A DNA stretch of 64,000 bases from a virus. Position 1 is the first letter of the stretch; every line of letters starts with the position of its first letter. Positions 10,522-51,200 of this stretch are shown in pieces. The notes beneath the pieces are model-generated. The model saw only the letters and a list, made by a program, of their open reading frames with translations, was not told the origin of the DNA and ran no database searches. Position numbers and translations under genes: made by a program. The stretch covers positions 5,534 to 69,533 of IMG/VR virus record IMGVR_UViG_2974595885_000001; one strand, 5' to 3'.

Positions 10522-11802
10522 ATGTCCTCGCAGCCGATGACAAACCCCTCGTCCCAAGTGGCAGGTCCAGTTGGTATGAACACCAACAACGGAAGCGCAA
10601 GCCTGCAGTCAGCAGACGCAACGTTCCGGAGTATCGTGGAGGATATGCTTTTGACTGATAACAGGTTCGTAGGGCTAACGTCCTACGTCCTGCAGATCAA
10701 GTTTTGGTGGAGCGAAGCAATCGATACAGCCTGTGCAGGTGCAGGCTTTATCTTTTTCAACCCCAAGTTCTGGGACAAACTGGACGCTGAACGTCGTAAG
10801 ACTGTTGTGGCTCATGAGATCTGGCATCTGATCCTCAACCACCTTGATCGTGGTGAGGGGCTGGATCCTGAGTCCTACAACATCGCAGGCGATTACGTCA
10901 TCAACTGGCATCTGAAGGAAGATGGTTTCTGTGTGGATAATCCATTCGGAGACATCGATATTCTATTGAATGGCAAATACGCAGGCATGAGCACAGAGGC
11001 AGTTTATGCAAAAGTCCACAAACAACGGAAGCAAGACCCAAAAAGTCATGCTGCTCCACATGGCACTCCTACAGCCGACCAGATCGAAGACCTCATCAAA
11101 GAAGCTCTTAATGGAACTGGGAAAGATCTCGGCCAGCAAAAGAAGCAGAACGATCAAGCAAGGGATGAAGCGGTACAACAAGCCAAAGCTGGTAACGGTG
11201 ATGGGTCAACGGATCGCATCCTAGCCTCTGAAGGCTTCAAAGTATTCATTCAGGAGAAAACCTATGAAGAGATCTTCGAACAATGGCTCCTCGACCCACT
11301 CTCTGGTGGAAAGAGAACCTATCTCAGACCGTCTCGTAGACAGATTGCTGGAGGGCTGCGTCTCAAGGGAAAATTCCAAAAGAGGGGTAAACATAATCGA
11401 CTTACGCATCTTGTTTACGCTCTGGATGTCTCCGGATCAATTACGGCCAAACAAGCACAGCAGTTCCTGAGATCAGCTAAGACTCTGAAAGAAAAGCTGA
11501 ATCCTGTGCTGATGACTGTGATTCTTTGGGACACCAAGATCAAATTTGAGAAGGTGTTCAAGGAGGATGAGACCCTCGACAACATCCGAGTCACTGCAGG
11601 TGGAGGAACCAACCTCACTCCTGTCTACAAGCGACTCAAACAACTGAACCCGGAAGCTGCTGTGATCTTCACCGATCTGGAAGTGACCATTCCCCCGAAA
11701 CCAAGTTGGGAGACTATCTGGTTCGTACCTAACCTCGGAATTGGAGACTATTGGCTCCAGAAGGTGAATTACGGCGAAGTCTACCTCGTACCGGAGAAGT
11801 AA
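10522..11802 (+). CDS. Metallopeptidase-VWA domain protein (N4 gp25-like)
   Basis: HEIWH (HExxH), NIAGDYVIN, MIDAS DVSGS, GGGT and IFTD. Confidence 0.88.
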   Translation: MSSQPMTNPSSQVAGPVGMNTNNGSASLQSADATFRSIVEDMLLTDNRFVGLTSYVLQIKFWWSEAIDTACAGAGFIFFNPKFWDKLDAERRKTVVAHEIWHLILNHLDRGEGLDPESYNIAGDYVINWHLKEDGFCVDNPFGDIDILLNGKYAGMSTEAVYAKVHKQRKQDPKSHAAPHGTPTADQIEDLIKEALNGTGKDLGQQKKQNDQARDEAVQQAKAGNGDGSTDRILASEGFKVFIQEKTYEEIFEQWLLDPLSGGKRTYLRPSRRQIAGGLRLKGKFQKRGKHNRLTHLVYALDVSGSITAKQAQQFLRSAKTLKEKLNPVLMTVILWDTKIKFEKVFKEDETLDNIRVTAGGGTNLTPVYKRLKQLNPEAAVIFTDLEVTIPPKPSWETIWFVPNLGIGDYWLQKVNYGEVYLVPEK

Positions 11803-12428: not shown

Positions 12429-13955
12429 ATGACCAAACCAAAACTTCTCATCCTCGGCTATGGCCGACATGGCAAGGATACTGTTGCAGAAATGCTACAG
12501 AACTACGGCTTCAACTTCATGTCTTCATCGGAGTTTGTTGGCCGTGAAATCCTTTGGGATGCTTGGGGTTCTGCTGTCTATGACACCTTCGAAGAGATGT
12601 TCGCTGACCGATCCAATCATCGTGTCCTCTGGATGCAGATGATCTCGGCCTACAACACCCCTGACAAGACCAAGACGGCAAGCACCATGCTGGAACGTGG
12701 CTACGACATGTATGTCGGTATGCGTCGTTTCGATGAACTCCAAGCCTGCAAGGAAGCAGGTATCTTCGACAAAATCATCTGGGTTGATCGCTCTGAGCAT
12801 CTTCCCCCGGAAGAAGGGTCGATGGACATCACCAAAGAGAACTGTGGTGCAGATGTGATCATCTACAACAATGGTTCCTTGGCTCAACTGGAACAGAGTG
12901 TTGCTGTTCTTGTGGAAGAGTACCTCCAAGATCACTGTGGTTTCGAATGGGATCTACCCATGCCCGAAACCATTACGATGGGTGGACGGACTTTCACCCC
13001 ACAACCGTACTTCCCCGGTGAACGTCAAACTGTTGCAGAACGGCCACAGTCTGAACCAACCAAAACAGACAGTGATCAAGTGGACCTGATGGAGCTTCCT
13101 GAAGGTGCAATCCCTGTTCTGGATCATGGCTATGTCAAGCTGGTTCGTGTCGATGGTACTGAAGACGACATTGCTCGTGCTGCACGTCTCTCCTATGGGC
13201 GAGGTACGCAAAAACGCACAGACAATGCCGGTCTGATCCGTTACCTCTACATGAATGCACATACGTCTCCCTTCGAGATGTGTGAGATTGTGGTTCAAAT
13301 GCGACTTCCCATCTTCGTTATGCGACAGTTGGTTCGTCACCGGACTGCAAACCTGAACGAGTATTCGGGACGGTACAGCATCATGCCACGACTGTTCTAC
13401 ATCCCTGAGATGGACCGGATGAACACTCAAAGCAAAGCCAACAAGCAAGGCTCTGATGACAACATGATCCGTGATGCGGATTACTTCCGTCGTGCCATTG
13501 AAGAACAGTGCCATGAAGCCTTCGATCTCTACGAAGCTCTGGTCGCTGACGATGTGGACTTCACTCGTGAACTCGCACGAAACCACCTTCCTCTGAACAC
13601 TTACACAGAGGTGGTGTGGAAAATGGACCTGAACAATCTGTTCAAATTCTTGGCTCTCCGAGATGATGAACATGCTCAGTGGGAAATCCGTGTCTATGCA
13701 CAGATCATCGCTGAGTTCGTTCGTGAGAACTTCCCGGCTGCTTACGCTGCCTATGAGCGGAAGAAATCAATGGTCACAATGACTTGGGAGCAACTCGTTG
13801 CTCTTACATCTGGCTTCGGACGTGATGATCTGCCGAAGTCTGAACGTGCTCAGATCGACGATATCCAACGTCGTTTGCAACAGGATATCACGGCCAAGAT
13901 GGCCCAAATGGTTGATCTGGGAGCACAAAATGGACCTGTAAACCTTGCTCCGTAG
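12429..13955 (+). CDS. thyX: dNMP kinase-like domain fused to flavin-dependent thymidylate synthase
   Basis: N-terminal P-loop ILGYGRHGKDTVA. C-terminal ARLSYG, HTSPFE, RQLVRHR, NEYSGRY and HAQWEIR. No stop between the domains. Confidence 0.88.
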   Translation: MTKPKLLILGYGRHGKDTVAEMLQNYGFNFMSSSEFVGREILWDAWGSAVYDTFEEMFADRSNHRVLWMQMISAYNTPDKTKTASTMLERGYDMYVGMRRFDELQACKEAGIFDKIIWVDRSEHLPPEEGSMDITKENCGADVIIYNNGSLAQLEQSVAVLVEEYLQDHCGFEWDLPMPETITMGGRTFTPQPYFPGERQTVAERPQSEPTKTDSDQVDLMELPEGAIPVLDHGYVKLVRVDGTEDDIARAARLSYGRGTQKRTDNAGLIRYLYMNAHTSPFEMCEIVVQMRLPIFVMRQLVRHRTANLNEYSGRYSIMPRLFYIPEMDRMNTQSKANKQGSDDNMIRDADYFRRAIEEQCHEAFDLYEALVADDVDFTRELARNHLPLNTYTEVVWKMDLNNLFKFLALRDDEHAQWEIRVYAQIIAEFVRENFPAAYAAYERKKSMVTMTWEQLVALTSGFGRDDLPKSERAQIDDIQRRLQQDITAKMAQMVDLGAQNGPVNLAP

Positions 13956-14007: not shown

Positions 14008-15225
14008 ATGACCCAAACCAAGAAAAAGACATCAACCAAGCAAACGAAACCCCCCAAAGAGAAGAAAGAGATCGAGCTAAAGGCCGGTCAGAAAATTGGT
14101 ACTCATGGTAAACCTGCCCCACTGTCAGAAAACGAACGCAAGTTCCATGACAACTGGACCAAGAAAGACTGCATCGATCACCTCCGTGATCTGCAAAACC
14201 AAAATCCCGACATGTTCATCTCACGAAACTGGTTCCGAGCGAACTCAGACATTTCCGATGCTACATGGAATCGATATTTCGGAACCTTCCAAGAATTCAA
14301 ACGCAGTGCCGGAATTGATCTCTCTCGGCACGCTGGTCGGCTCGAAAAGCAAATAGCCAAACATGCGGGCCACGACGAGATCGAGAAGTTTAGTAACCAG
14401 AAGCTCGGTTACATCGGCAAGTACGAGAAACCGAAAGGTGATCGGTGGCAAACCGTTATGGCGTGCAGTGATGTTCATGACGAATTCTGTGACCCCTTCT
14501 GGCGGCGTGTCTTCATCGAAAGCCTCGAACGCATCCAACCAGATATCCTCATCCTGAATGGCGATATTTTCGACCTGCCCGAGTTCTCCAAATATGCTCA
14601 AGATCCCCGTGAATGGGATGTGACTCGGAAGATCCGAATTGCCCTCGACTTTATCCGGGACTGTCGTGAAGCTGCACCGAATGCCCAGATAGATTTCATT
14701 GAAGGTAATCACGAGTTCCGGCTCTTCCGTCACCTTGCGGAAGCTACTCCAGCCCTGAAGACTGTACTTGCTGATTTGCATGGTTTCACTATCCCTAAAC
14801 TGTTGGGCCTCGACGAATTTGAGATCAATTTCGTTGGCACTGCTGATCTTAAAGCGTGGACAGAACGGGACATCAAGAAAGAACTGACACGGAACTACAA
14901 GATCTACTTCGACGGTACGTTTCTTGCCTGTCACTTCCCAGATCGTCGCAATCTTCATATGGCTGGTTTCGGTGGACATCACCACAAACACGAAGTTTGG
15001 CCCATTCGGAATGCTTGGGGAATCCCTGCTGAATTCCATCAAATGGGTGGTGGTCATTACCGTGCTGCAGAATACTGTGACGGTGAAATCTGGAACCTTG
15101 GTTTCATGCTCGGACACTGTGATACCCAGAAAAGGGTTGTCAACTTCGAGTATGTTCCTGTAACAGACCATGCAGTTGTCGGTGGACAGTGGTATCACCG
15201 TACAATTGATGAACACATTGTCTGA
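14008..15225 (+). CDS. Calcineurin-like metallophosphoesterase with an N-terminal helical (HNH-associated-repeat-like) domain
   Basis: SDVH, NGDIFD, EGNHE and GGHHH metal-binding motifs. N-terminal TWNRYFGTFQEFKRSAG. Confidence 0.82.
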   Translation: MTQTKKKTSTKQTKPPKEKKEIELKAGQKIGTHGKPAPLSENERKFHDNWTKKDCIDHLRDLQNQNPDMFISRNWFRANSDISDATWNRYFGTFQEFKRSAGIDLSRHAGRLEKQIAKHAGHDEIEKFSNQKLGYIGKYEKPKGDRWQTVMACSDVHDEFCDPFWRRVFIESLERIQPDILILNGDIFDLPEFSKYAQDPREWDVTRKIRIALDFIRDCREAAPNAQIDFIEGNHEFRLFRHLAEATPALKTVLADLHGFTIPKLLGLDEFEINFVGTADLKAWTERDIKKELTRNYKIYFDGTFLACHFPDRRNLHMAGFGGHHHKHEVWPIRNAWGIPAEFHQMGGGHYRAAEYCDGEIWNLGFMLGHCDTQKRVVNFEYVPVTDHAVVGGQWYHRTIDEHIV

Positions 15226-15235
15226 GGAGACTCCT

Positions 15236-15457
15236 ATGTCCAAGAAATTCCGTCAAGATGAACCCGTCCAAACTGCAGAAGGCACTGGCCGTATTGCAGG
15301 TGAGATTGCTGGTGGCAAACGTGCTCACTGGCGTGTCACGCTGGATGAATCGGGTGATACCGTCACTCTCCCTACTTCTGAGATCTTCAAGCGTGGTGAA
15401 ACCATGCCCGAAGTCGAAGCAGAAGAAGTCGATGAGGGGACTGGTGATGACGACTGA
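15236..15457 (+). CDS. Small protein, possible SH3/KOW-like beta barrel with acidic tail
   Basis: 73 aa, RBS GAGGAG. Confidence 0.65.
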   Translation: MSKKFRQDEPVQTAEGTGRIAGEIAGGKRAHWRVTLDESGDTVTLPTSEIFKRGETMPEVEAEEVDEGTGDDD

Positions 15458-15647
15458 GAAGGTTGAATCCCTCTTCCGATATGCTCACCTGCCTGATGAC
15501 CTTCAGGCGGTGAGTTCCCCCTTCTACCACTTGGCTATGGACCTGACTCGCACACTCCCTCAGAGTGCTGAACTGACTCTGGCCCTTCGTTCCCTCTGGG
15601 AAGCCAAGAATCTGGCTGTATTCGCTGCAGTCGAAGCAAAGGATTGA
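15447..15647 (+). CDS. Small helical-hairpin protein, candidate Acb2/Tad1-like
   Basis: FRYAHLP..LQAVS..F..LA...LPQSAELTLALRSLWEAKNLAV, RBS GAGGGG. The ORF is solid and the function is inferred. Confidence 0.6.
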   Translation: MTTEKVESLFRYAHLPDDLQAVSSPFYHLAMDLTRTLPQSAELTLALRSLWEAKNLAVFAAVEAKD

Positions 15648-15651
15648 TCAC

Positions 15652-15855
15652 ATGGGTGTCAAAGTCGAAGTCAAAGAACCTCGTCGTACAATCAAGATGG
15701 CATCGGGCAACAAGCTCGAACTGCACAACGTCACTGCCTTTGATTGTTCTGGTTCCTTCCTCCGTCTCTGGTCTGATGAAGGCTTCACAATGATCAACGA
15801 AGCCAACATCGACTGGATGATCGTGAAAGGCGAACCTGCCAGCGACGAACAGTAA
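15652..15855 (+). CDS. Hypothetical protein
   Basis: 67 aa, RBS AAGGA. Confidence 0.7.
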   Translation: MGVKVEVKEPRRTIKMASGNKLELHNVTAFDCSGSFLRLWSDEGFTMINEANIDWMIVKGEPASDEQ

Positions 15856-15879: not shown

Positions 15880-15909
15880 AGGCCCCCTCTTACCGGAGGG
15901 GGTCTTTTT
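15880..15909 (+). terminator. Rho-independent terminator
   Basis: AGGCCCCCTCT-TACC-GGAGGGGGTCT followed by TTTT. Confidence 0.8.
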
Positions 15910-17343: not shown

Positions 17344-19002
17344 ATGGCTGATCGTCGTCCTATCGTCCTCGTAGACGGAAAATTTCAGGAATTCAAAGAT
17401 GGGGATACCCTTATCGGTGCGGGTGGAGGCAGTGCTTCCTACCCGGATTTTTCTTCCAATGCAGGTAAAGTGCTTGCAGTGAACGACACTGAAGATGGTG
17501 TCGAATGGGTCATTGGTGCAGGTGGTACGGAAAACAACTACTTTTCTGCTCTCTATGATGCCAACGTCAACATGAGCACTTCGATGACTGGAGCCACAGA
17601 AGCCATGAAAGGTGCTCTAGGTACTGTCGTTGAAGATACTGCCGTCGTTGAGATGTTTGGTTATCTTGGTTCAAACCAAGACATTACTCCCATGATCGTG
17701 AAACTGTCTGATGCTACCACGTCAGCAACGATCACCGAGATTCTTTACACTGGGCCTGAGTTCACCACTTCAGGATCCAATGATATCAACCGTGTAGCCA
17801 TGACATCCCCTGTCCATTTGACAGCCGGTGATGTGGTTGCATTCCTCTGGGTACGTCAGGATGGTAGCTCTGTAGCTATCTCCTCTGGTTCTACAGGGTA
17901 TAACCTCCCTGATGAGATCACCTTTGAAACTGTCCAAGCCATCCGAAATAACCCTGCAGGTGCTCTCCCTGCTGTTGGTGAAGGTGGGGTTGTATCAAGT
18001 TCTGGTACATACTCCGTCGGTATTCGCCTCTTCTCCAATGATCTTTATGCTGCAATGGACTTCGGAGGCGGAGATGCTTCCTACCCCTCATTCACTGGGA
18101 ACCAAGGAAAGATCCTTGCAGTCAATTCCGCAGAAGACGGTGTTGAATGGATCGATGCACCCTCTGGTGGGGACACCTATGGAGCAAAGATTGGTGTCGA
18201 TATCCTTGATACCCCTCTCGGATCTTCCTCTGGTTTTGCTACCAAAGGTAACTTGTACCTTGCTTCCATCGACATGCGGATCACAGATGTCTCTTTCCTG
18301 ACTGCAACTGCAGGAGCTTCTTTTGAGGTGATTGCAGCTATCATGGACAACGGTACTTCGAGCAACAACATCGTCTCGATGACCCGTGAAACTGTGTCTT
18401 CGTACACTGAGGGGAGTGTTGCAAACAACACTGTGGCTCTGACCACTCCTCTGGAAGTAGCTGCAGGTCAGTATTTCTATGTTGCTCTGGTCCGTACTGA
18501 TGGTTCTGCAACCACAAGCAATGGAGCTTACTACCAACAAAACACCTCTATCACGAACGATTCTGCTACTCACCAAGGTGGTCAGCGTCTTCAAGACATT
18601 GATGTTCAGGTTGGAGACGGTCCAAGTTCTGACCTCTTTGCGTCTGATATGTGGTCTGTAACCTACTCCTATGAACCAAAGGAAGCCGATACTGACTCTC
18701 TGATCACTCAGGAAACGATCTCTGGGGCATACAGTATCGTTGAGGAGGATCTCAGTGGGTTGATCATGAAGAAGGCTTCAGCGGCTGCTACAGTCACTGT
18801 CACGGCTGGTCTTTCATCCAGTCAGCCTGTCACTTTCATTCAGACAGGGGCTGGTCAAATCACCTTCGTGGCTGATACCGGTGTGACAATCGTTTCTGCA
18901 GATGGAAACCTCCTGACTCGTGTCCAAGGTTCTTCGGCTACATTGGTTCAGGATGCAGATACTGCAGACACCTACTACCTGTTCGGGGATTTGACATCAT
19001 GA
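17344..19002 (+). CDS. Tail fibre/receptor-binding-associated protein with duplicated modules
   Basis: N-terminal MADRRPIVLVDG anchor, two 26-aa linker repeats and two similar beta domains, C-terminal ...TYYLFGDLT adaptor domain. Confidence 0.65.
   Translation: MADRRPIVLVDGKFQEFKDGDTLIGAGGGSASYPDFSSNAGKVLAVNDTEDGVEWVIGAGGTENNYFSALYDANVNMSTSMTGATEAMKGALGTVVEDTAVVEMFGYLGSNQDITPMIVKLSDATTSATITEILYTGPEFTTSGSNDINRVAMTSPVHLTAGDVVAFLWVRQDGSSVAISSGSTGYNLPDEITFETVQAIRNNPAGALPAVGEGGVVSSSGTYSVGIRLFSNDLYAAMDFGGGDASYPSFTGNQGKILAVNSAEDGVEWIDAPSGGDTYGAKIGVDILDTPLGSSSGFATKGNLYLASIDMRITDVSFLTATAGASFEVIAAIMDNGTSSNNIVSMTRETVSSYTEGSVANNTVALTTPLEVAAGQYFYVALVRTDGSATTSNGAYYQQNTSITNDSATHQGGQRLQDIDVQVGDGPSSDLFASDMWSVTYSYEPKEADTDSLITQETISGAYSIVEEDLSGLIMKKASAAATVTVTAGLSSSQPVTFIQTGAGQITFVADTGVTIVSADGNLLTRVQGSSATLVQDADTADTYYLFGDLTS
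17434..17511 (+). repeat. 26-aa repeat copy 1 (ASYPDFSSNAGKVLAVNDTEDGVEWV)
   Basis: Matches copy 2 at 18076-18153. Confidence 0.85.
18076..18153 (+). repeat. 26-aa repeat copy 2 (ASYPSFTGNQGKILAVNSAEDGVEWI)
   Basis: Matches copy 1 at 17434-17511, 642 nt (214 aa) upstream. Confidence 0.85.
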
Positions 19003-21380
19003 TGCCAGTAATCATCGGAACCATCGCAAGTTCATTCCGTTTGCCAGTGGTGGGGGAACTCGTTTCTTCCCACCGTTACTGGCGTTTGACTTTCCTTGAT
19101 GGAGATAACTTTACCTATTGTTCTCTGGCAGAAGTTGAGATGCGTGCTGTAGCAGATGGACCTTCTATCGCTACTGGAGGTACTGCATTTGGTACGAATG
19201 ATCGTGGTGGATCTTGGGTCAAAGCCAATGCTTTCGATGGAAATGCCAACAGTTTTTTCTCCACCACTGAAGATTACCCTGTGTATCTTGGTTATGATTT
19301 TGGGACTAATGTGGAAGTCGTTGAAATCATGATTAAAGCTCGTCCTACATTCAATGACCACACTCCCACAGTATTCCGTCTGGAAGCCTCTGATGACATG
19401 GAAAACTGGGCCTTTATGGGTATTGGTTCCATTGAATCTGATTGGACTGCTGCTCAAGAATTGGTGTGTACTGTTGCTCCTCCTGATTTTGATACCACAC
19501 ATCAACGTGTTGGTTACTCTCTTGGTACAACTTCCAACATTCTCAACGGAAACCTATCCAAAGCATATGCTGCAAATACTCTTACCCATATAGTAGGCCG
19601 TACTGGTAACAGTGGGGTCGATTGGGAAGGTCGAGTATTTCGAGCCACTTCGAAAGGTATGATTAAATCTCAGGTAGCCACATTTTCTCACACGAATACT
19701 TCTTCAGGTGAGTTTATTGACATGGCACTTTCTTCCCCTGTTGCAGTGAAAAAAGGTGAACACATTGTCACTTTGTTCCGTCGATCTGATGATCCTTCTC
19801 AGGGATCTCGATTGAACTTCATGCGAGATGGTAACACCCCTGCCATTTACGAGAACATCGGTGACGGATGGAATGTCACCTCTGATAACTGGCCATCAGC
19901 AGGAGATGTATCAGACAGTGATACCAATGAATCAAGTTCTGATGGTCATCTGATCAACTTCATTGGTACTTATGAACGTGAACCAACCAAACGAGACTAT
20001 TTAGGAAAGACTGTGGTCTTGGTTATCATGGGTCAGTCAAACGCTGTGGGGCGTGCCACAGACACTCTCTCGTCTGATACAACCACAACTGCCAACGTCC
20101 TCACCTGTAACTCCTCTCACGCTCTCATTGACGCTGTGGAGCCTCTTCCTACGACCAACTCGAATGAGAATTCTGGTCAGATGGGGTATGGTTATGGTGT
20201 GGCCCGTGAATTCCTCACCCGTCACTCTCCTGCTCGGGTCATCGTCATCAACCTTGCTGTTGGTGGTGCAGGTTTCCTGAATGGTGATTGGAACCCTTCC
20301 AATGGTCCAGTCTATGACTCTGCAAAAGCTCGTTGGGAAGCCTGCTGGTCTACAATTACTTCCACCTATCCCGGTGCTGAGATTGGATCAATCATCTGGA
20401 CTCAAGGTGAGGATGAAGTCCAAGACTATACCACCTTGTTTGATGGTACTGATGATGATCATCGTTATGCTGCTATGGTGATGGGACTCTTCGAAACTGT
20501 ACGTCGTTCTTGGACTGGCTTCGATCAAGATGTCCCTATTGTTGTGACTCCGATTCCCGGATCTTCCAACTACACAAACCAACCTGCAGCAAACTCCAAT
20601 ATCCAAACAGGTATTGGCACCATCGCTCAGTCGATGAAGTATGCTGCTTTGGTGGATATGTCAGGTGTGACAGAGACTTACAAAGATGCTGGTCACTGGG
20701 ACGGGGATACCTATCGTCAGATGTTTGTTCCTATCGTGGATGCCATTGATGCAACCCTGTTCAACAACTGGACCTACGAGAAAACCTCTGACTGGACACA
20801 GGTATCTGGGGTCAAGATTGGTCTTGATGCTCGTGGTTTGGCTGAAGGTGCAACCATCACAAACGTGAGTTCTGAATTCCCTGAGTTCGACAACAAACGA
20901 GTATTTGTGGACACCAACAGCCGTATGAATTTTGATGGACAAGCTGAACTTCGGTGGAGAGACAACGGGAAACCTCGTCTCGGAACCAATGATTTCAGTA
21001 TCCGTCTGAGCTTTGAGTCCACATCCTCTGTAGAACAGGGTTTGATTGCTGATTACCAGACCACAGGAAACAAACGGTCTTGGGTTCTTCGTCGTTCAAG
21101 CACTTCGACTCTTCAGTTTTATGTATCAAACAATGGTACATCTGCTGATTTGGCTCTGGAACACTCCATCTCTTCAAACACCACCTACAAAGTAGAGGTG
21201 AAACGTACCGGGACTCTTCTCGAATTGTACGTTGATGATGTGGTTGTTGATACTCACACTCTTGCAAGTGGGTACGATTTCTTCGACACAGGTGATGATT
21301 CACCTCTCCTCATTGGAGATCACATCAATGGAAGAGAACTGGTCGGATACCTCGACTATGTTTTCCTCGAATTACTGTAG
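18999..21380 (+). CDS. Multidomain receptor-binding protein: discoidin-like, SGNH/SASA carbohydrate esterase and LamG/ConA-like domains
   Basis: RYWRL...AFDG...YLGYDFG...FRLEASDD (F5/8 type C). GQSN, WTQGEDE and DAGH (SGNH esterase). C-terminal LamG-like domain ending LLIG...GYLDYV. Confidence 0.8.
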   Translation: MMPVIIGTIASSFRLPVVGELVSSHRYWRLTFLDGDNFTYCSLAEVEMRAVADGPSIATGGTAFGTNDRGGSWVKANAFDGNANSFFSTTEDYPVYLGYDFGTNVEVVEIMIKARPTFNDHTPTVFRLEASDDMENWAFMGIGSIESDWTAAQELVCTVAPPDFDTTHQRVGYSLGTTSNILNGNLSKAYAANTLTHIVGRTGNSGVDWEGRVFRATSKGMIKSQVATFSHTNTSSGEFIDMALSSPVAVKKGEHIVTLFRRSDDPSQGSRLNFMRDGNTPAIYENIGDGWNVTSDNWPSAGDVSDSDTNESSSDGHLINFIGTYEREPTKRDYLGKTVVLVIMGQSNAVGRATDTLSSDTTTTANVLTCNSSHALIDAVEPLPTTNSNENSGQMGYGYGVAREFLTRHSPARVIVINLAVGGAGFLNGDWNPSNGPVYDSAKARWEACWSTITSTYPGAEIGSIIWTQGEDEVQDYTTLFDGTDDDHRYAAMVMGLFETVRRSWTGFDQDVPIVVTPIPGSSNYTNQPAANSNIQTGIGTIAQSMKYAALVDMSGVTETYKDAGHWDGDTYRQMFVPIVDAIDATLFNNWTYEKTSDWTQVSGVKIGLDARGLAEGATITNVSSEFPEFDNKRVFVDTNSRMNFDGQAELRWRDNGKPRLGTNDFSIRLSFESTSSVEQGLIADYQTTGNKRSWVLRRSSTSTLQFYVSNNGTSADLALEHSISSNTTYKVEVKRTGTLLELYVDDVVVDTHTLASGYDFFDTGDDSPLLIGDHINGRELVGYLDYVFLELL

Positions 21381-42203: not shown

Positions 42204-45200
42204 TTAGTTCCAACCAGCAATCACTGCCCATGGGTGCATTTCCGGGGCTGTGAAGAACATCTCTGTACCAGTCGAGAAGTCCAGACGATCTGCACCAATG
42301 GTGAAAATGTTATCGTCCACTGGGTTACCGACATCAGGTCCAGCCATCTGCATAGTCAGAGACCGTACAGGGTTTTCCCGCATCATCCGCATTGCCACTT
42401 TTGCAGCCCGGATCTTGTATGCGAAGAACCAAGTACCACCCATCCGCTCCAACAGAGAGCGAACACGACCCGGAAGAATGCCGTAGTTGATGAAGTTGTT
42501 GTTCATCTTTGCGAGAGCCTCTTCCTTCTCAAGTCCCTGAGCAATCAGGTGGTCGTAGTAGATCGACTTGGCAACCAAATCCCCATACTGAGTAGACGTG
42601 TTCATGAACTTGTAGAACTTCGTGTCCTTCGAGATCAATGCAACACGAGCAGCCTTACGGCCACGTTCACCACCATGTTTCTCTGCAAGATCAATGAGTT
42701 GCTGTTCCCAGTCCTTGTTGTACTCGCCTTGCTCGGTGAGTCCTTCAACGAGGTTCTTGAACTGACCAGCTTCGATCATAGGAGCAATGGACATCCGGTT
42801 ACGACGTTCTTCCAGAGCAGAGATCTTCCGGTCAATGGTCACACGTTTCCGAGGATTAACTTCACGTTCCACGGAGAGATCCATGATCTGAACACCAATC
42901 TTCTCGAACTCCTGCAGTTCAGCAATCTTGTCACGAGTACCCTTCAGGATAGCCTTGATAGGAACACCTTGGTTCGCAAGCTGCCAGACGTTGGAAACTG
43001 CATTCTGGTAAGCCACCTGAACCGATTTGATGATGATGGTGGACTTCACATTGGACACAGTTTCCTCAAGAGCACGTTCACCTTGAGCCAACCAACGCAT
43101 AGCATTCTTGCCCATGAGCATCTGAGCGACCTGACGAGCACCCTTGTTCACCTCTGCAGGCATATTGTTCTGACCGGTCCAGATATCCGTCACAGACGCC
43201 TCACGATAGCCCACAGACAGGTCCACATGGTCTTTCCGTACCATGAACCCAGTATCCTCACCGAACTGCTCATCAGCGTAGTCTTTGACGTACTGAGGCA
43301 TCAGACGATAGGCTTCCCGGTGCTGAGGGTTCTTCGAGGTTTTCAGGTTCACGAATTCCTCAGAAGTATCATTGTCCCGGTTGTGCCAGAGAGAAGCCAA
43401 ATGCTCCACAGTACCTTTGTTGAACTCAACAGAGGCATTCTCTTCGAAGGTACGACCGTATTTGATACCCGACAGGGTGAAGATGTCGTTTTCCAGTTCC
43501 AGAGCGTTTTCCATGACCTCACGGTTGTGCAGGAACTCGAAACCTTCAATCGTCCCATCAGGACCGTAAACCGGTGCATAGAACTCAGTCTCATCAGCAG
43601 ACAGATCTGAGTTGTAGAAGTTCACCAATTGCTCAGTGACATCCACTTCCATTGCATCAGTCCCGAATGTGGATTGACCAGTCACCTTGTCCACACCTTT
43701 GAAGGTCTGACCAGCGTTCTGCAGAACACCTTGAGAGTAGTTCTGTTGGGCTGTGTCATTCACAAAGTAGGCCATGGTGAAACCGGTAGGTAGACCAGTC
43801 TCGATATCCTGAACCTTACGCCAGCCTTTGGCTTTCAGAGCAGCTTCACTCGCAGCCGTATCGATCTTGATCCGGGAACCACCTTTGGAAACCATAGGCT
43901 GATAACCTTTGTAGTGGTTCATCCGAGCCATACCAGAGATCTGAGTGGCCCCAGTTTCCTCTTCTTGGTTCATGTGGTTCAGCCAGTTCAGGAGACCCTG
44001 TGCAGCTTCTTCGTTGTCCATGACGTACTGTTGCAAATCTGCATCACCTCCGGCCAGTTCCAGAGCTTTCAGAGTCACATACTCATCAATGATGTCCACA
44101 CCATCGATCTCAGGGTTTTCCAGTCGAGCAATCGCAAATGCGTTACGCTGCAGGAATTTACCCGGAACACCGTTGACCATGAAGTTTGCAAGCTGGTCAG
44201 CCTTGGCTTCCACAGCAGATGCACGAGAACCATACAGAACACCAATCTGGGCCTGTGCATCGTTCATACGCTGGTTGAAGTAAGCTGCATCAGTCAGGAG
44301 ACGGACAGCATTCCCTGCACCCTCACGAGAAGCGATAGAGGCCAGATCAGTTTTGGCGATCTGAGTATTCATCGTTTGAGCCATCTCACGATCATCGGTG
44401 AAACGGTTACGCAGGATAGCAGGGATACGGTCACGAATCTGTTGACGCGCCCAAACAACCCGGAAATTCACTTCATCCAGTTTCTGGATCAAACCTTTGT
44501 TGTCATCGGTGGAACCAATAACCTCATTCACAAAGGAACGAATTGGCTGGCCGATCACAGTATCAAAGAACGGGATCCGGTTCATCTGGTGTTGTGTTGC
44601 TGCAGCCTGAAGTTCAGCCCGATCAGCATCCAGCATGTTGGTCACAGATGTGACAGCATTTGCCAGACCACGAACGATCAGGTTGGAGTTTTCCTCCATG
44701 ATCTTCTCACGTTTCCGGTCAGTGATCTCTGCAAGCTGAGACATAGCACCAGAGACAAACTCATCTGCCTTGTCAAAGGAACGGGTCAAACCATCCAGAA
44801 CACCATACTCACGGGACGTATCGACCTTGTGGAGAGACCGAGCAAGGTTATCCACCACACTCAGAAGATCACCCTCAACGTCTACTTTTTGGGTGAGTTT
44901 CCGGACAGTGTAGTCAACCGCTCCCGTAATGAAGTCAGGGAGGCTTTCAGCTTTTGCATTTTCTCCTTCCGGAGCCGGTATCTCTCCCAACGCTTCGCGG
45001 AATTGTCGTGAAGATTGAGTGAGTGAAAGAAACGCTGCCAAGGGTCCATGATCAGACTCCCTATCCATAAGCGACTGAATTTCTTGAGTTTGACGAGCAT
45101 CAGCCATGTTCAGGTTTTCCATGACATGGTTCAGGATCTTCGTCAAACCACCTTCCATCTGAGTATTCGTCGGAAGACCAGCACGCATGATGATGTAGAC

Positions 45201-48200
45201 AGCACGGAAGTTAGCCCGAGCTTCTGCACCACGCAGCAGGTTCGACTGACCCAGATCGTTGATAATCCGGTCTGCTTCATCGTGGAAATCAACCACATCC
45301 TGAGCATTCTGAGAGCGTTGGCCCCCATTCGCAGGAGTGGATTTTACGTTCATATCGTCGATCCAGTTTTTGACCATATCGATCCAGTAACCTGTTGGTT
45401 TACCAGAGAAAGGTCCAGAACCTTCGCCACCATCCTCAACAGGAGGAACAGGAGGTTGGCCCAGATACCCAGTTGCGAAAACCAACTCATCAAACATATT
45501 CGCAGGAACCCCTACGATACGTTTCATCAACTGGACCACTTTCTGAGCCAGTTTCAGGATCGGAGATTTGGACTCCAGAGCCTTACGGGTTTTCATGTTG
45601 GTCAGGCCCCAAGCCATGAACTCATTCAGAGCAGCAGCTTTCGCTTCTGGTGTTGTGTTCGTTTGGTTCCGGAGCACTGCAGCTTTGGCCTGTGGAGCGT
45701 CAATGGTGTCATCACCCATGAACTCATCCATCAGAGCTTCAAGCTGTTCCACAGCCTCATGCTTGTTCCCGTTGTAGTGATCCAGCACACGGCTCATGGT
45801 TGCAGCATGAACCAACTCATGAAGAGCAGCTTCCGGATCTTTGGTAGCCAAGAAGATCACATCGTTGTTCGGGTCATAGTTCGCATCAGCTTTCAGGATC
45901 TGAGCATCGTCAGGGAAGTTCTGGATCCGGTATTCGTTCAACTGTTCCAGAGTACCGTAGACCACACGAGTCTCAGGACGGATCATTGGAGCAATGACCT
46001 TCAGGACTGCAGGATCACCCTTCATACGCTTCATGAGAGCCTGAGCAGTGAATTCCTTCACCGGTACACGGACATCTTCCTGAACCTTCTCACCGGCCAG
46101 TTCCTTACGGATCAGTTCGTTGATTTCGGAGCGAGACAGTTCCAGACCATCTTGGGAGAAACCAACATCAGAACCACCCATCTGATCGACAGACTTGGCC
46201 AGACGTTTCATCACCCGTTTACGGGCTTTGATTGCTTCATGCCTCTGATCCAATTGTACCATCAAATCCTGCATATTCGAGATTTCGATCTCACTTTTTT
46301 CTTGAGCGATAGCAATTGCTTCGTCGAGAGCAGTTTGATCGAGATCATTCGACAGGAAACCACGGAAGTTTTCTGCAGCCATTCCAAACACATCACGTTC
46401 CCAAGTAGCAGCAACCTGTTCGTTCACGAGAGGTGCATACTCTTTGATCTTGGTGACAGGCATATCGATACCGTCAAAGATCGGGAGAGTGTCTGGCATC
46501 TTGTCAGCAACACGAGAGTAGATGAGGTTCATCATCATCGCATCACCAGTGGCGATCACAGTGAACGGGATAGCAGCCACACCCGGCAGAGACGGGAACG
46601 GAAGGTTGGATTTCTGACGGAATTCACGAGTCATCGACGAGGACAGTTCCAAGTCAGACTGGGTTTTCTCAAAACCACCAATACTTAGAGTCTGGGTATC
46701 CGACGTGAACAGAGGAGACATGGTTTCCAGTTCAGCCATGGCTTTCTCATAGTCAGCCCGTGCGATCTTGGAATAGACCGGATCACCTTTGTCGTTCTTC
46801 GGAGCGTACTCAGCCAGTTTCCGAGCCATCATGACTTGGAGATATGCAGACTGGACGTTCGTCGAGTAGACCATCAGATCGTTCAGAGTCTTGATGTCAT
46901 CACCAATCGTCTGTTGTGTGGCTTCAGCCAGAACACGACCCAGTGTTGAACCAACTTGGTTCTGGAACTGATCGATTGCAGAGTCAGGGAATTCAAAGGC
47001 ACCATCAATCCCTTGGGGCAGAGTATCCCCAAAGAGAACACGGATGTCCTGTTGGATTTCCGGGTAGCCAAAATACTCAGCATAATCAACGTTGTTCGGG
47101 ATGTTCTGGATCTTGGTGTAGAATTCCAGAAGCATGTCGTTGGCAACACCGATACCCACACCTTTCACACCAGAACCATAGTTGACCTTGGTCATCGGGT
47201 TCTTGGCAGTGTTACGGGTCATCTCGATACGACCATCGTCATGACGCTTCAGGTTACCGAATGCAGCACCAAAACGCATGGAGGCTTCCAGAGCAGCCTG
47301 TTTACCGGGCTTCTTAGCCAGAGCCTTGTAGACGTTCCGAGCATGAGTAATGGAGCGTTCAGAGACTTTCTCGTACAGGTCTTTGTTGGTTCCCTGACCG
47401 AAGAAACTGTTGATCGAACGACCAGTCTCACCGAGGAACAAACCAATACGCTGAAGGTTTCCGAACTCTTCTTGGCTGATCTCACCTTGACCGAAGTTCA
47501 CCATCATGTTGGCAGCACCGTTGGTCAGACCATCCAGTTCCACAGACAGAGAGGTGTCAAAGGTTTCACGGCCACTTTCCATGGCGAACTCTGCTTCAGC
47601 CACAGCATATACAGCAGCCAACTGTTGCATTTCTACAACACCCATGGCTTGGCCCAGATTACCTTGCAATTCACCCGTCTGAAGGTAGGATTTCAAGATT
47701 GCCTTGGCTTCACCGTAGCGAGCTTCGAATTCATCTTGGACGTTTGCCAAGATCTCAGCTTGGTTCTTCTTCTCGATCTTGAACAGGTCAGAAGCCTGAG
47801 CAACACCCAACCAGAAAGCATCCATCTGATCTTTGTCGTTCAGGTTCACAGTGGCCCAGTTCGGAGCAACCAGAGCACGGAGGATCTTGTTCGATTGAGG
47901 GTTGATACCCTGATACTGGTGACGACCAACCTTGGTCACACCAACCGAGTAATACACCGGAGTATCCCGAGTTTCTGCTTCACCGATCACTTGCAGTGCA
48001 TCAGCGTAACCCATTTCAATCGAAAGGTTTTTACCCTCGACAGACTTCCGGAGAGTTTCGTTCTGGATCTCATCAGGGTTCACCCAACCAAGCATAAATG
48101 CCAGATCATCACCCATCTGGTCAGCCACATCAGCGAGACCTTCATTCAGGTAATGAGGAGTTTCCTGCATGGCCCGGAGAGCTTTCTTCTCCGTCGCACT

Positions 48201-51200
48201 CAACCGCACCTTCGAACGGTTTTGAGTGTTTGCCACCTCTGCGAAAGGTTCACCAATTTGGAAACCCAGAGGTTTTTCGTTGAACAGAGCTTCACGAACA
48301 GTATTCGGAGTCCCCTTCACTTTCTCTTCAGCATAGCGAGCCTTGGCAGTGTCGAGAGCTTTGGTTTTGACGTAGATACCCTTGGTGGTTTGTTTCACAC
48401 CATCCACAAGAGTAGGAACGTCACGCAGTTCGATGATACCACCGTCAGCAGCGACAGTGAGCATCTCAGCAACCAGACCTTCAACAACACCGGTCAGCAT
48501 GTCGATAGGAGCGTTCTTGTTCTCACGGACATTCCACAGACGGAGTACCTGACCAGAGATTTCCTCCAGTGCATTCTGCGAAGGAACCGAACCAACCAGA
48601 TTCTCGAACTCTTCTTGAGTTGGTTTCACTTCCATCAGGCTGTCACGAACTTCATTCAGCATCGACGGAGTAGCATTGAGGATCCAGTCAGATACGACCA
48701 GACCAGCCAATTCAACCATCTCAGCGTTGTAGTTCCCAGTGGTAGGATCGATCACAGCAGTGTTCCGGTATTCACGCAACTCACTGAATTTACGACCATT
48801 CTTGTCTGTGGTTCCTTCCAGAGTATGTTGACGAGCAGACAGTTTCTTTCCACCGAAAGAGGTAGTCACATTGTCCAGACGGGCTTCCATTTTACGGACC
48901 CAACGAGGAACCATCTGACCAGCAAAACGAGCCAGATATGGGTTTGCTTTCACGTTCTGAGCAAAGTCGTCGATGTTCTGAACAGGACGATCACCATCTT
49001 GCTCCTGATATGTTGCGGAGAAAACCTCAGTAACCACCGCATCAGGAGTATCGATGTCTTCAGAAACAACCTCTTCATCAGATTGGTTGTCACGAGCAGC
49101 AACAGTCCCATCAAAGTCAGGGTTTGTTTGGTGGATCTGAGACCCCTTGGAAGCGATCACCATAGCCTCATTGTCGTTGAACAGGAGAATGGAGTCATTC
49201 CCATCACGATCACGAGCCTCTTTCAGACGCATGTTGTTCTGCATCCAGAAGTCATAGGGATCGATGTTGTTTCCGACATGTTGTGCCAGAGGATTGGCCA
49301 GTTCCACTTCAGCCTCAATGAGACGAGCAGTACCAGAACCGTCACCACGAGCGAATTCCCGTGCCAGACCTTTACGAGTGGTCAGGAACGTTTCGCCATC
49401 CCGGAATGTGGCAAAGTCAGCATTTGTGCCATGGTAGAACTTGGTGCGTTCACCAGAGGCTTCATCAACAAGGAAGTCACCATCACCTTCGATAGTGGTG
49501 GCAGCATCTTCAGAAGCCTGCAGTTCAGAGTTTTCCAGAGCATCAGCGATTTCTGCCTCCACAACCTCCGCTGCGGCGTCGGTTGCTTCGTCAGTCCGGG
49601 GAGTTTCTTCAACAGTATCAGTTGCTTGGTTTTGCTCCTCATCTGTTGACACTCCCTCGGCGGGGGCCTCGGAAGTATCCCCAGTTTCGTCGTTTGTCCG
49701 GGGAGTGGTGTCTGTTTGTTCGCCATCCGCGTAATCGATTAGACTGTCAGCAACGTCCAGAGTCTCTCCGGGTGAAACAGTCAGGTCTTCTGCCTTGGCA
49801 AGCTCAATGGGGGTGAACTTGTCGAATGAACCAAACAGATCAGGGAATGTGGCCTGAACTTGGTTATAGACCTCAACAGCAGTATTCAGGTCCGAAGCGA
49901 CACGTTCAGCAAACGCAACCGAAGAAGGATTGCTACGGTTATAGCGAACAGGTTTCGCTCCACCTTCTGCACCTGCAGGTACGAATTTAGTACCACCAAC
50001 CAAGGACTCGAAGTGAACAAGAGGGCCACGGCCATCAGAGTTATTTCGGTTAAAGCTGTCATTGAGAGCCTCCACTTTATTGCTCATGTGACGAACGAAG
50101 TTTCCAAACTCAGCCATGATTTGGGTAGCAGGAATCTCAACACCACGAGAGTTGACGATTGCTCCAGTCGGGGACTGAGCAGCAGAGAAGATGTCAGAAG
50201 CAAAGTCATTCACAGAACGAAGCGAACGACCAGCACGGTCCACATAACCATTGGCAAGGATACTGCGAGATGTATCAGCCTGTGATCCAGCAGCTTTTGT
50301 GGGTTTTCCAGCCCGTGTCAGGCTGATGTTCTCTGCTTCATTGATCTGAACGTTTGTCTCTACAGCTTTGTTCACTGTAGCAGCAATCTTGCTGGCAGAC
50401 TGAAGGATCTTCACATCTGCATCAGAGATCTGACCAACATTCTGTTCAAGAATCCGAGTAGCAGTTTCAGGATTCACTGCAGCAGGATTGGTACGAGCCA
50501 GAGCAAGAGTTTCCTCTTCCACCACAGGAGTGATGGTTTCCACAGGATCAGCAGTATTCTGGTCGATGGTATTCAGATTGGCTTCCAGTTCCTGAACAAC
50601 AGGTTGAGCCAAAACATTCATGATCCGATCTTTGGCCAAACCACTCATAGAAGCAGCAGCCTGACGGAGACGAGTCACCTGTTCAGCGAACACAGCCTTG
50701 TTCCCATCGAAGTCACGACGAGTACCCCGGAAAACAGCTTCCAGAGACTGTTCCACATCAGCAGTTACTTCTGGTTCAGCAATGACGGCAGCAGCCGCTT
50801 CATTCACAGCAGAACGAACCTCATCCCGTTCACCACGACGTTCATCCACCCGATCAGCAACAGCAGATGCAGCTTCCTGACCACGTTGGATCAGACCAGT
50901 ACGTCCCTCAGTGCCAAGGAAGGCATTACGGACAGGATCAGAGTATGTGCCTTCAGTACCGTAGAGAAGATCTGTGGCACCCTGTACGACGGCTTCTCCG
51001 GTCCCTTGGATCGTTGCAGGAGCAGAGGTAACACCAGCCATACCCAGACCACCAATGGCACCCAGAGCAGCTTGTTCACCCACTCCATCAAGGAGAGAAC
51101 CATCACGAACACCTACTTCATTCTGGACGTAGTTCCCGACCAGAGCAGAGTTTGCACCTTGTCCTGCTTCTTCAGCAGTCTGTGCAATGGCTGTACGGAG

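Follow-up and report, generated by a model that had tools for sequence, protein, structure and literature searches.

A 66-residue protein from an N4-like marine roseophage represents a large phage protein family with probable distant homology to Acb2/Tad1 hairpin proteins

The product of a small gene in an N4-like marine roseophage, a protein of 66 aa, is very probably a distant homologue of the Acb2/Tad1 hairpin superfamily, judging from profile comparisons and a predicted structure. By the same sequence comparisons, the family to which it belongs, phrog_1761, is a very large sister family that lies beyond the reach of the Pfam model PF24729. The family is distinct from Acb2 in that it has its own conserved motif set, is missed by the PF24729 HMM, and has tested members that are inactive on five signals; the superfamily, the fold and probably also the mode of assembly are held in common with Acb2. 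The 66-aa protein is a candidate Acb2-like oligomeric sponge for a nucleotide immune signal, an assignment for which we consider the chances to be about even.

Genomic context and gene structure

The source of the DNA is an N4-like marine roseophage, the virus record of which comprises 72,674 bp with direct terminal repeats. The window (i.e. the whole stretch of 64,000 nucleotides that was analysed) is a part of this record. The best tblastn matches of the 66-aa protein are found in N4-like roseophages of Schitoviridae/Rhodovirinae, including Sulfitobacter phage EE36phi1, Ruegeria phage DSS3phi2, and phages of Dinoroseobacter and Roseovarius, with identities of 68-76%. In the window, the gene is part of a co-directional block that is composed of a metallophosphoesterase gene, a 73-aa ORF, the 66-aa gene, a 67-aa ORF, and a terminator. 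The block is preceded by genes for a dCMP deaminase and ThyX, and is followed by tail-fibre-type genes encoding BppU_N-like, lectin-like, and SASA-esterase proteins. Its features are as follows.

14008..15225, + strand: calcineurin-like metallophosphoesterase, 405 aa (Pfam PF00149, E 2.2e-5; phrog_20266, E 1.8e-177), first gene of the block
15236..15457, + strand: 73-aa ORF with a strongly acidic tail, EVEAEEVDEGTGDDD, between the esterase gene and the hairpin gene
15434..15439, + strand: GAGGGG, a Shine-Dalgarno-like box 7 nt before the ATG of the 66-aa gene, found by sequence inspection
15447..15647, + strand: 66-aa hairpin gene (P0001), an ORF for a stand-alone helical-hairpin protein of the phrog_1761 family
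15652..15855, + strand: 67-aa ORF downstream of the hairpin gene, just before the terminator
15880..15905, + strand: intrinsic-terminator-like hairpin (11-bp stem with 7 GC pairs, and a T-run) that ends the block before the tail-fibre-like genes

Translation of 15447-15647 (+) yields 66 residues, including ...SLFRYAHLPDDLQAVSSPFYHLAMDLTRTLPQSAELTLALRSLWEAKNLAVFAAVEAKD, and then TGA, in exact agreement with the protein and the motifs quoted for it in an earlier note on this DNA. The start of the gene overlaps the stop of the upstream 73-aa ORF, which is in another frame, by 11 nt. A word-indexed search identified 52 close relatives with 65-81% identity and 23 invariant columns, among them proteins of other N4-like roseophages. 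Given these homologues, the match to phrog_1761, the 4,431 clusters of the family, and a confident AlphaFold2 model, the 66-aa ORF is a genuine conserved gene and more than a chance reading frame. Two other gene models were considered and rejected. The first is a 129-aa reading in the same frame, from an ATG at 15258; homologues begin at or near the ATG at 15447, or bear unrelated N-terminal extensions. The second, suggested by the 148 positions of the PHROG profile, is a split or frameshifted gene that includes the 73-aa ORF, an ORF without homologues; the extra length of the profile is due to members that are N-terminally extended or fused.

The 73-aa ORF has no match in Pfam, PHROG or NCBIfam, and no tblastn match in 50,697 phage records. 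In DSS3phi2, there is no gene at the corresponding position. The 67-aa ORF has no family match, and its tblastn matches are solely in two Rhizobium phages and are weak (35-43% identity). Since the first of these ORFs has no homologue in isolated phages and the second is matched only in two Rhizobium phages, the site of the hairpin gene behaves as a variable accessory region.

A widespread family of small phage proteins

The 66-aa protein matches phrog_1761 with an E value of 1.3e-29 (residues 2-65 on profile positions 78-141 of 148) and phrog_5120 with an E value of 1.6e-13, both of which are PHROG families of uncharacterised function. The family is characterised by the motif 'F-x-Y-x-HLP ... 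LP-x-S-x-E-x-T-x-A-L-R-x-L-x-E-A-K-[DN]'. When clusters are counted as 50% identity representatives, an exhaustive HMMER search with an alignment of 52 relatives recovers 4,431 representative clusters at E<=1e-3, and 828 of these also pass E<=1e-10. Most members are stand-alone proteins of 60-95 aa. Among GenBank phages, tblastn identified 197 records, including jumbo phages of Erwinia and Dickeya as well as phages of Acinetobacter, Vibrio, Alteromonas, Gordonia, Brevibacterium, Actinoplanes, and Microcystis. The family extends over podo-, sipho- and jumbo phages whose hosts belong to at least three bacterial phyla, and reaches across Proteobacteria, Actinobacteria and cyanobacterial phages. 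Nearly all of the GenBank matches listed are annotated as hypothetical, and none of those listed is named Acb2. In the literature searched, no mention of 'phrog_1761' was found, nor any paper that combines Acb2 with N4-like or roseophage terms.

Conservation was scored over 109 diverse members of the family. L15 is 100% conserved, and is followed by F10, H14 and A30 (99% each), D/N55 (98%), S23 and K54 (97% each), V58 (96%), F26 (95%), P16, E42, R48 and E52 (92% each), and T44 (88%). Position 12 is Y in 84% of members and F in a further 9%.

The surroundings of the gene vary between unrelated phages. In Gordonia phage DumpsterDude, it lies between the genes for a head-tail connector and an adaptor; in Vibrio phage martha, it lies between the small and large terminase genes; and in Erwinia jumbo phages, a 150-aa protein of the early region has the family domain as its C-terminal half. 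Scattered, insert-like placement of this kind is typical for accessory genes. Because the neighbourhoods differ in this way, the link to a metallophosphoesterase gene is specific to the roseophage lineage.

Predicted fold, tandem copies and fusions

The AlphaFold2 model of the 66-aa protein, built from an alignment of 29 sequences, has a mean pLDDT of 96.1 and a pTM of 0.81. It consists of a short helix (residues 3-10) followed by two long antiparallel helices (residues 17-36 and 41-65), with no strands. The domain is duplicated in tandem in seven of the 148 listed representatives (P0054, P0058, P0068, P0085, P0100, P0105 and P0150). One of these, P0068, is predicted from a six-sequence alignment to fold as a compact two-hairpin unit (pTM 0.80, pLDDT 83), and this modelled pseudo-dimer fits a dimer as the building block of a larger assembly.

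In other members, the domain is joined to unrelated sequences. P0104 and P0188 carry the family domain together with a PF21825 Sequestin domain in one polypeptide (E 1.5e-15 and 8.9e-17, respectively), with Sequestin on the C-terminal side of the family domain. In further fusions (P0116, P0075, P0171, P0168, P0184 and P0194), varied small modules are located at the N-terminal side. Among these modules are a PGDYG-like domain and Cys-rich segments of zinc-ribbon-like appearance; another segment bears a DFDGV motif and is, by eye, HAD-phosphatase-like.

Relationship to the Acb2/Tad1 hairpin superfamily

Scans of the 66-aa protein against Pfam, NCBIfam and PADLOC returned nothing meaningful. The HMM of PF24729 (Acb2_Tad1_hairpin; cut-off 27 bits) has no match at E<=10 to the 66-aa protein or anywhere in the phage genome; as positive controls, T4 Vs.4 and PaMx33 Acb2 were detected by it at 7e-20 and 3e-18, respectively. 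Weak matches to PF24729 (E<=10, the best being 0.0058) occur in 5 of the 109 diverse family members and are no commoner than the matches of the same members to the unrelated families Occludin_ELL (5) and HEAT_2 (4). Searches of all PDB sequences, using phmmer and two profiles, found no Acb2, Tad1, other sponge or credible match. Similarly, fold searches of the PDB with Foldseek and VIA-align returned generic helical bundles with Z<8, and Acb2 and Tad1 were not among the matches listed. Whether the narrow alignment of roseophage proteins or that of the broad family was used, direct comparison by hhalign with T4 Vs.4 or PaMx33 Acb2 was not significant, with probabilities for the family of 1.4% (Vs.4 clade) and 0.3% (PaMx33 clade). 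The phage genome was also searched with PF21825, PF11195 and PF13876 and gave no match; Sequestin, Tad2 and Acb4 are not encoded.

The relationship to Acb2 is instead apparent through an intermediate clade. Two IMG/VR proteins of 'F-[ST]-Y-H-P-P-T' type (L006/L007), found with a short degenerate motif, match PF24729 at 3e-16 and 1e-11, and among the relatives of the second, 36 of 37 bear PF24729 in precomputed annotation. Within the accessible part of the study by Hadary et al. (bioRxiv 10.1101/2025.08.24.671296), one protein of this type is listed in Table S1, and a near relative is 'Acb2' homologue 17. By hhalign, the family (109 members) aligns with the 'FTYHPPT' clade at a probability of 95.7% (E 8.5e-9) over 62 columns, corresponding to 62 of 66 residues. 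The 'FTYHPPT' clade in turn aligns with the T4 Vs.4 clade at 86.8% (E 4.2e-6), and the Vs.4 clade with PaMx33 Acb2 at 82.6% (E 9.6e-6). Controls with reversed alignments gave 0.1-0.2%, and 200 column shuffles gave a mean score of 10.5 (sd 2.4, maximum 22.3), so that the observed score of 46.8 is about 15 sd above the mean. Based on these scores and on the shuffle and reversal controls, profile comparison places the family no further from an accepted Acb2 clade than such clades lie from one another. Because the direct comparison is not significant, the link from the family to Vs.4 and PaMx33 is transitive.

Additional connections were found by other methods. Both Vs.4 (7e-4) and family members (4.7e-7) match phrog_1454. 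A BLASTP alignment of the 66-aa protein with P0359, which bears PF24729, has 41% identity over 27 aa that include the turn and the second helix (E 0.001). The nearest clusters in the ESM Atlas carry PF24729 in 18% and 51% of their members. In a Foldseek search of BFVD, about 15 of the top 50 matches, beyond those to the family itself, are named 'Acb2/Tad1 hairpin domain-containing protein', and the best of these has a TM score of 0.77-0.78 and an rmsd of 1.6 Å over 61 columns, with a probability of 0.99.

The earlier note had pointed out, by eye, a resemblance to Acb2/Tad1-type sponges and had named structure searching as a way to check it. As a placement in the superfamily, the resemblance is upheld by profile-profile comparison; it does not extend to a match with the PF24729 HMM, to a lysine equivalent to K26 of PaMx33 Acb2, or to the beta domain of Tad1. 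Foldseek with the monomer model gave a divided answer, namely Acb2/Tad1 hairpins in BFVD and generic helical bundles in the PDB. The helix register proposed in the same note was accurate, in that SAELTLALRSLWEA aligns column by column with the helix S-R-E-L-S-L-A-L-T-K-L-E-E-[AC] of PF24729. The correct register in the 66-aa protein is S40-A41-E42...A46-L47...L50-x-E52-A53.

Comparison with known sponge proteins

The 'F-[ST]-Y-H-P-P-T' Acb2 clade (PF24729; Hadary homologues 4 and 17; P0324-P0360 and L006:7924-8133:-) likewise comprises stand-alone proteins, of 66-75 aa. It has in common with the family the N-terminal F-x-Y-H motif, the turn 'P-x-[SG]-x-E/G-x-[ST]', and the second-helix register A-[LI]-[RT]-[KS]-L-x-[ED]-A. 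Those genes of this clade that were fetched are small inserts adjoining portal or capsid genes, and the 66-aa gene is a small insert as well. However, the helix-1 region of the family is about 5 residues shorter, and the family is undetected by the PF24729 HMM. The family alone has the invariants H-L-P, S23, P-F and E-A-K-[DN]-x-A-V, whereas the 'F-[ST]-Y-H-P-P-T' clade has E-A-x-M-W-A-N.

PaMx33 Acb2 (P0322; PDB 8H2J, 8H2X) and T4 Vs.4 (P0201) have the same topology as the 66-aa protein, with a short N-terminal segment and two long antiparallel helices. The stacking Tyr is also common to them, and hexamers are predicted for the family in the models of Tal et al. In contrast, the 66-aa protein is 22-27 residues shorter than these two proteins and has no direct sequence or profile match to them.

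Tad1 (PDB 7UAW), a hexameric sponge, shares the C-terminal helical hairpin, from which the name of PF24729 is derived. The N-terminal beta-sheet domain of Tad1 contributes to gcADPR binding. From its description, Tad1 is set apart from the 66-aa protein, which is all-helical, only 66 aa long, and without such a domain; Tad1 proper is thus excluded as the closest relative. Sequestin (PF21825, crAss001_48) is likewise a small helical phage protein, and is fused to the family domain in some polypeptides, but it belongs to an unrelated family and is a dimeric 3'cADPR sponge (Tal et al. 2025).

Published screens of family members

Members of the family have already been included in a published screen. 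From among functionally uncharacterised short phage proteins, Tal et al. (bioRxiv 10.1101/2025.07.12.664507) selected those for which AlphaFold-Multimer confidently predicted a homo-oligomer that has several positively charged pockets between protomers. Their Table S2 lists at least three family members, with 68 aa and 61 aa ('hexamer') and 93 aa ('dimer/hexamer'). Five defence systems were used, namely Thoeris of type I (gcADPR) and type II (His-ADPR), CBASS of type I (3'3'-cGAMP), and Pycsar from E. coli (cCMP) and from Bacillus (cUMP) (Tal et al., bioRxiv 10.1101/2025.07.12.664507). Of the ligands named in the earlier note, the panel covers gcADPR, cGAMP, cCMP and cUMP. Where transformants were obtained, the three family members caused neither culture collapse nor phage rescue. 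Given these negative results, the ligand of the family is probably not 3'3'-cGAMP, 3'cADPR, His-ADPR, cCMP or cUMP. Although picked by Tal et al. as a structural sponge candidate, the family was thus far negative on all five signals tried.

The same study reported that sponge domains are often fused together, which was the route to the discovery of Sequestin (PF21825), and its Table S1 contains Sequestin homologues that have the family domain as their N-terminal half (Tal et al., bioRxiv 10.1101/2025.07.12.664507). In the accessible part of Hadary et al. (bioRxiv 10.1101/2025.08.24.671296), proteins joining a sponge domain to PF21825 were removed from the set; Acb2 homologue 4 inhibits cGAMP-CBASS, and homologue 17, like the tested members of the present family, was negative in all systems. 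The searched part of Tables S1 and S2 of that study contains no 'SKPF' motif, and, judged on this part, the family appears to be absent from the published Acb2 catalogue.

Possible function and alternatives

As an Acb2-like sponge, the 66-residue protein would self-assemble into a homo-oligomer, with a hexamer composed of dimers as its probable form. By analogy with Acb2, the pockets between protomers would bind a nucleotide second messenger produced by a host abortive-infection system, and sequestration of the messenger would keep the effector from ever being activated. For the 66-aa protein, we infer the oligomeric state as well as the pockets and the sequestration; the pockets are expected to involve Y12 and H14 at a dimer site and R48, at the position of Acb2 T74, at a three-fold site.

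Residue equivalences were obtained from chained hhalign alignments with PaMx33 Acb2 as the reference. PaMx33 Y11 (Y8 in Vs.4), which stacks on a base of the cyclic dinucleotide, corresponds to Y12 and is kept, with Tyr or Phe in the proportions given above. PaMx33 K26, which forms a salt bridge with phosphate, corresponds in an alignment that spans a 5-residue gap and has an uncertain register to S23, a position at which 97% of the family have Ser, i.e. the Lys is not kept. At the residue that follows S23, 70% of the family have K or R, and the 66-aa protein has Ser. At the cA3 site on the three-fold axis, PaMx33 R67 and T74 correspond to A41 and to the 92% conserved R48, respectively. The positive charge of the three-fold site would accordingly be kept on the other residue of the pair, at R48 and not at the R67 position.

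A different and less probable interpretation is that the Acb2 fold has been put to another use, as a small module for oligomerisation, as an adaptor, or as an inhibitor that binds proteins; the domain in sponge fusions would then be a multimerising head and not a second binding site. The loss of the Acb2 Lys is in line with this, as are the uniformly negative published functional tests of family members. The domain is also joined to many unrelated N-terminal modules, the Zn-ribbon-like and PGDYG-like ones included, and some siphophages place the gene inside head-tail or terminase operons. However, most members stand alone at 60-95 aa and have nothing else to multimerise, and the 88-99% conservation of H14, S23, E42, T44, R48, E52, K54 and D/N55 exceeds what a packing module would need. 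Moreover, members were picked by Tal et al. for charged pockets in their models. We consider this interpretation unlikely, although it is the strongest of the alternatives to a sponge.

It is more improbable still that the hairpin protein and the metallophosphoesterase form a two-part module, in which the esterase degrades an immune signal and the hairpin protein sequesters the same signal. This is a special case of the proposed sponge function, and the confidence placed in the two overlaps accordingly. In DSS3phi2, the hairpin homologue (gp31) is directly 3' of the esterase gene (gp30), with overlapping start and stop; in the present phage, both genes are within one terminator-bounded block; and in several other roseophage records the tblastn matches overlap a gene annotated as 'DNA repair exonuclease'. 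On the other hand, the 73-aa ORF separates the two genes in the source phage, and phrog_20266/phrog_221, in which the esterase falls, is a general family of phage phosphoesterases. Outside Rhodovirinae, the neighbours are head-tail connector genes, terminase subunits or the jumbo-phage early region, and the combination of esterase and sponge is poorly supported beyond the roseophage lineage.

Least probable of all is that the likeness to Acb2 arose by convergence or by chance and that the 66-aa protein is an unrelated helical hairpin, since, although short helical hairpins match many folds and the Pfam HMM and PDB sequence searches were empty, the profile-profile score stands far above its column shuffles over the full length, the PHROG bridge, the ESM Atlas features and the BFVD structure matches agree independently, and the F-x-Y-H and P-x-S-x-E-x-[ST]-x-A-L-x-x-L-x-E-A motifs are common to both in the same register.

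Implications for sponge discovery

Sponge proteins have repeatedly provided a handle for finding new bacterial immune signals. With several thousand clusters, the present family approximately equals the entire catalogued Acb2 set in size. For an oligomeric sponge function of the 66-aa protein, homology to Acb2/Tad1 raises the prior, and it narrows the search for a ligand to those outside the published tests. A more demanding proposal, and one that we regard as doubtful, is that the 'HLP...EAK[DN]' family acts as a sponge on an immune signal outside all characterised sponges and screens; if it is true, the ligand would reveal a new specificity among sponges or else a widespread new bacterial immune signalling molecule. 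A sponge function would also make this the first counter-defence gene assigned for N4-like roseophages, within the literature searched.

Other observations in the window

Several other genes of the window have unusual features. The ThyX gene upstream of the block (12429-13955, + strand) encodes 508 aa, and the Pfam Thy1 domain spans residues 238-436 only. The first ~237 residues have no Pfam match and begin with a P-loop-like GYGRHGKD motif. In DSS3phi2, ThyX is ~280 aa and is preceded by a separate gene for a dATP/dGTP pyrophosphohydrolase. The 508-aa ThyX may be a fusion. Upstream of the dCMP deaminase gene, a 426-aa protein (10522-11802, + strand) combines DUF2201_N, a putative metallopeptidase, with a VWA-like DUF2201 domain.

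Among the tail-fibre-type genes, 18999-21380 (+ strand) encodes a 793-aa protein with F5/8 type C (discoidin) and SASA sialate O-acetylesterase-like carbohydrate esterase domains, which, from its domain composition, may be a receptor-modifying enzyme. No tRNA genes were detected with ARAGORN in the window (1-64000). On the minus strand, an ORF of 3,352 aa occupies 42204-52262, a size that we take to be that expected of an N4-type virion RNA polymerase.
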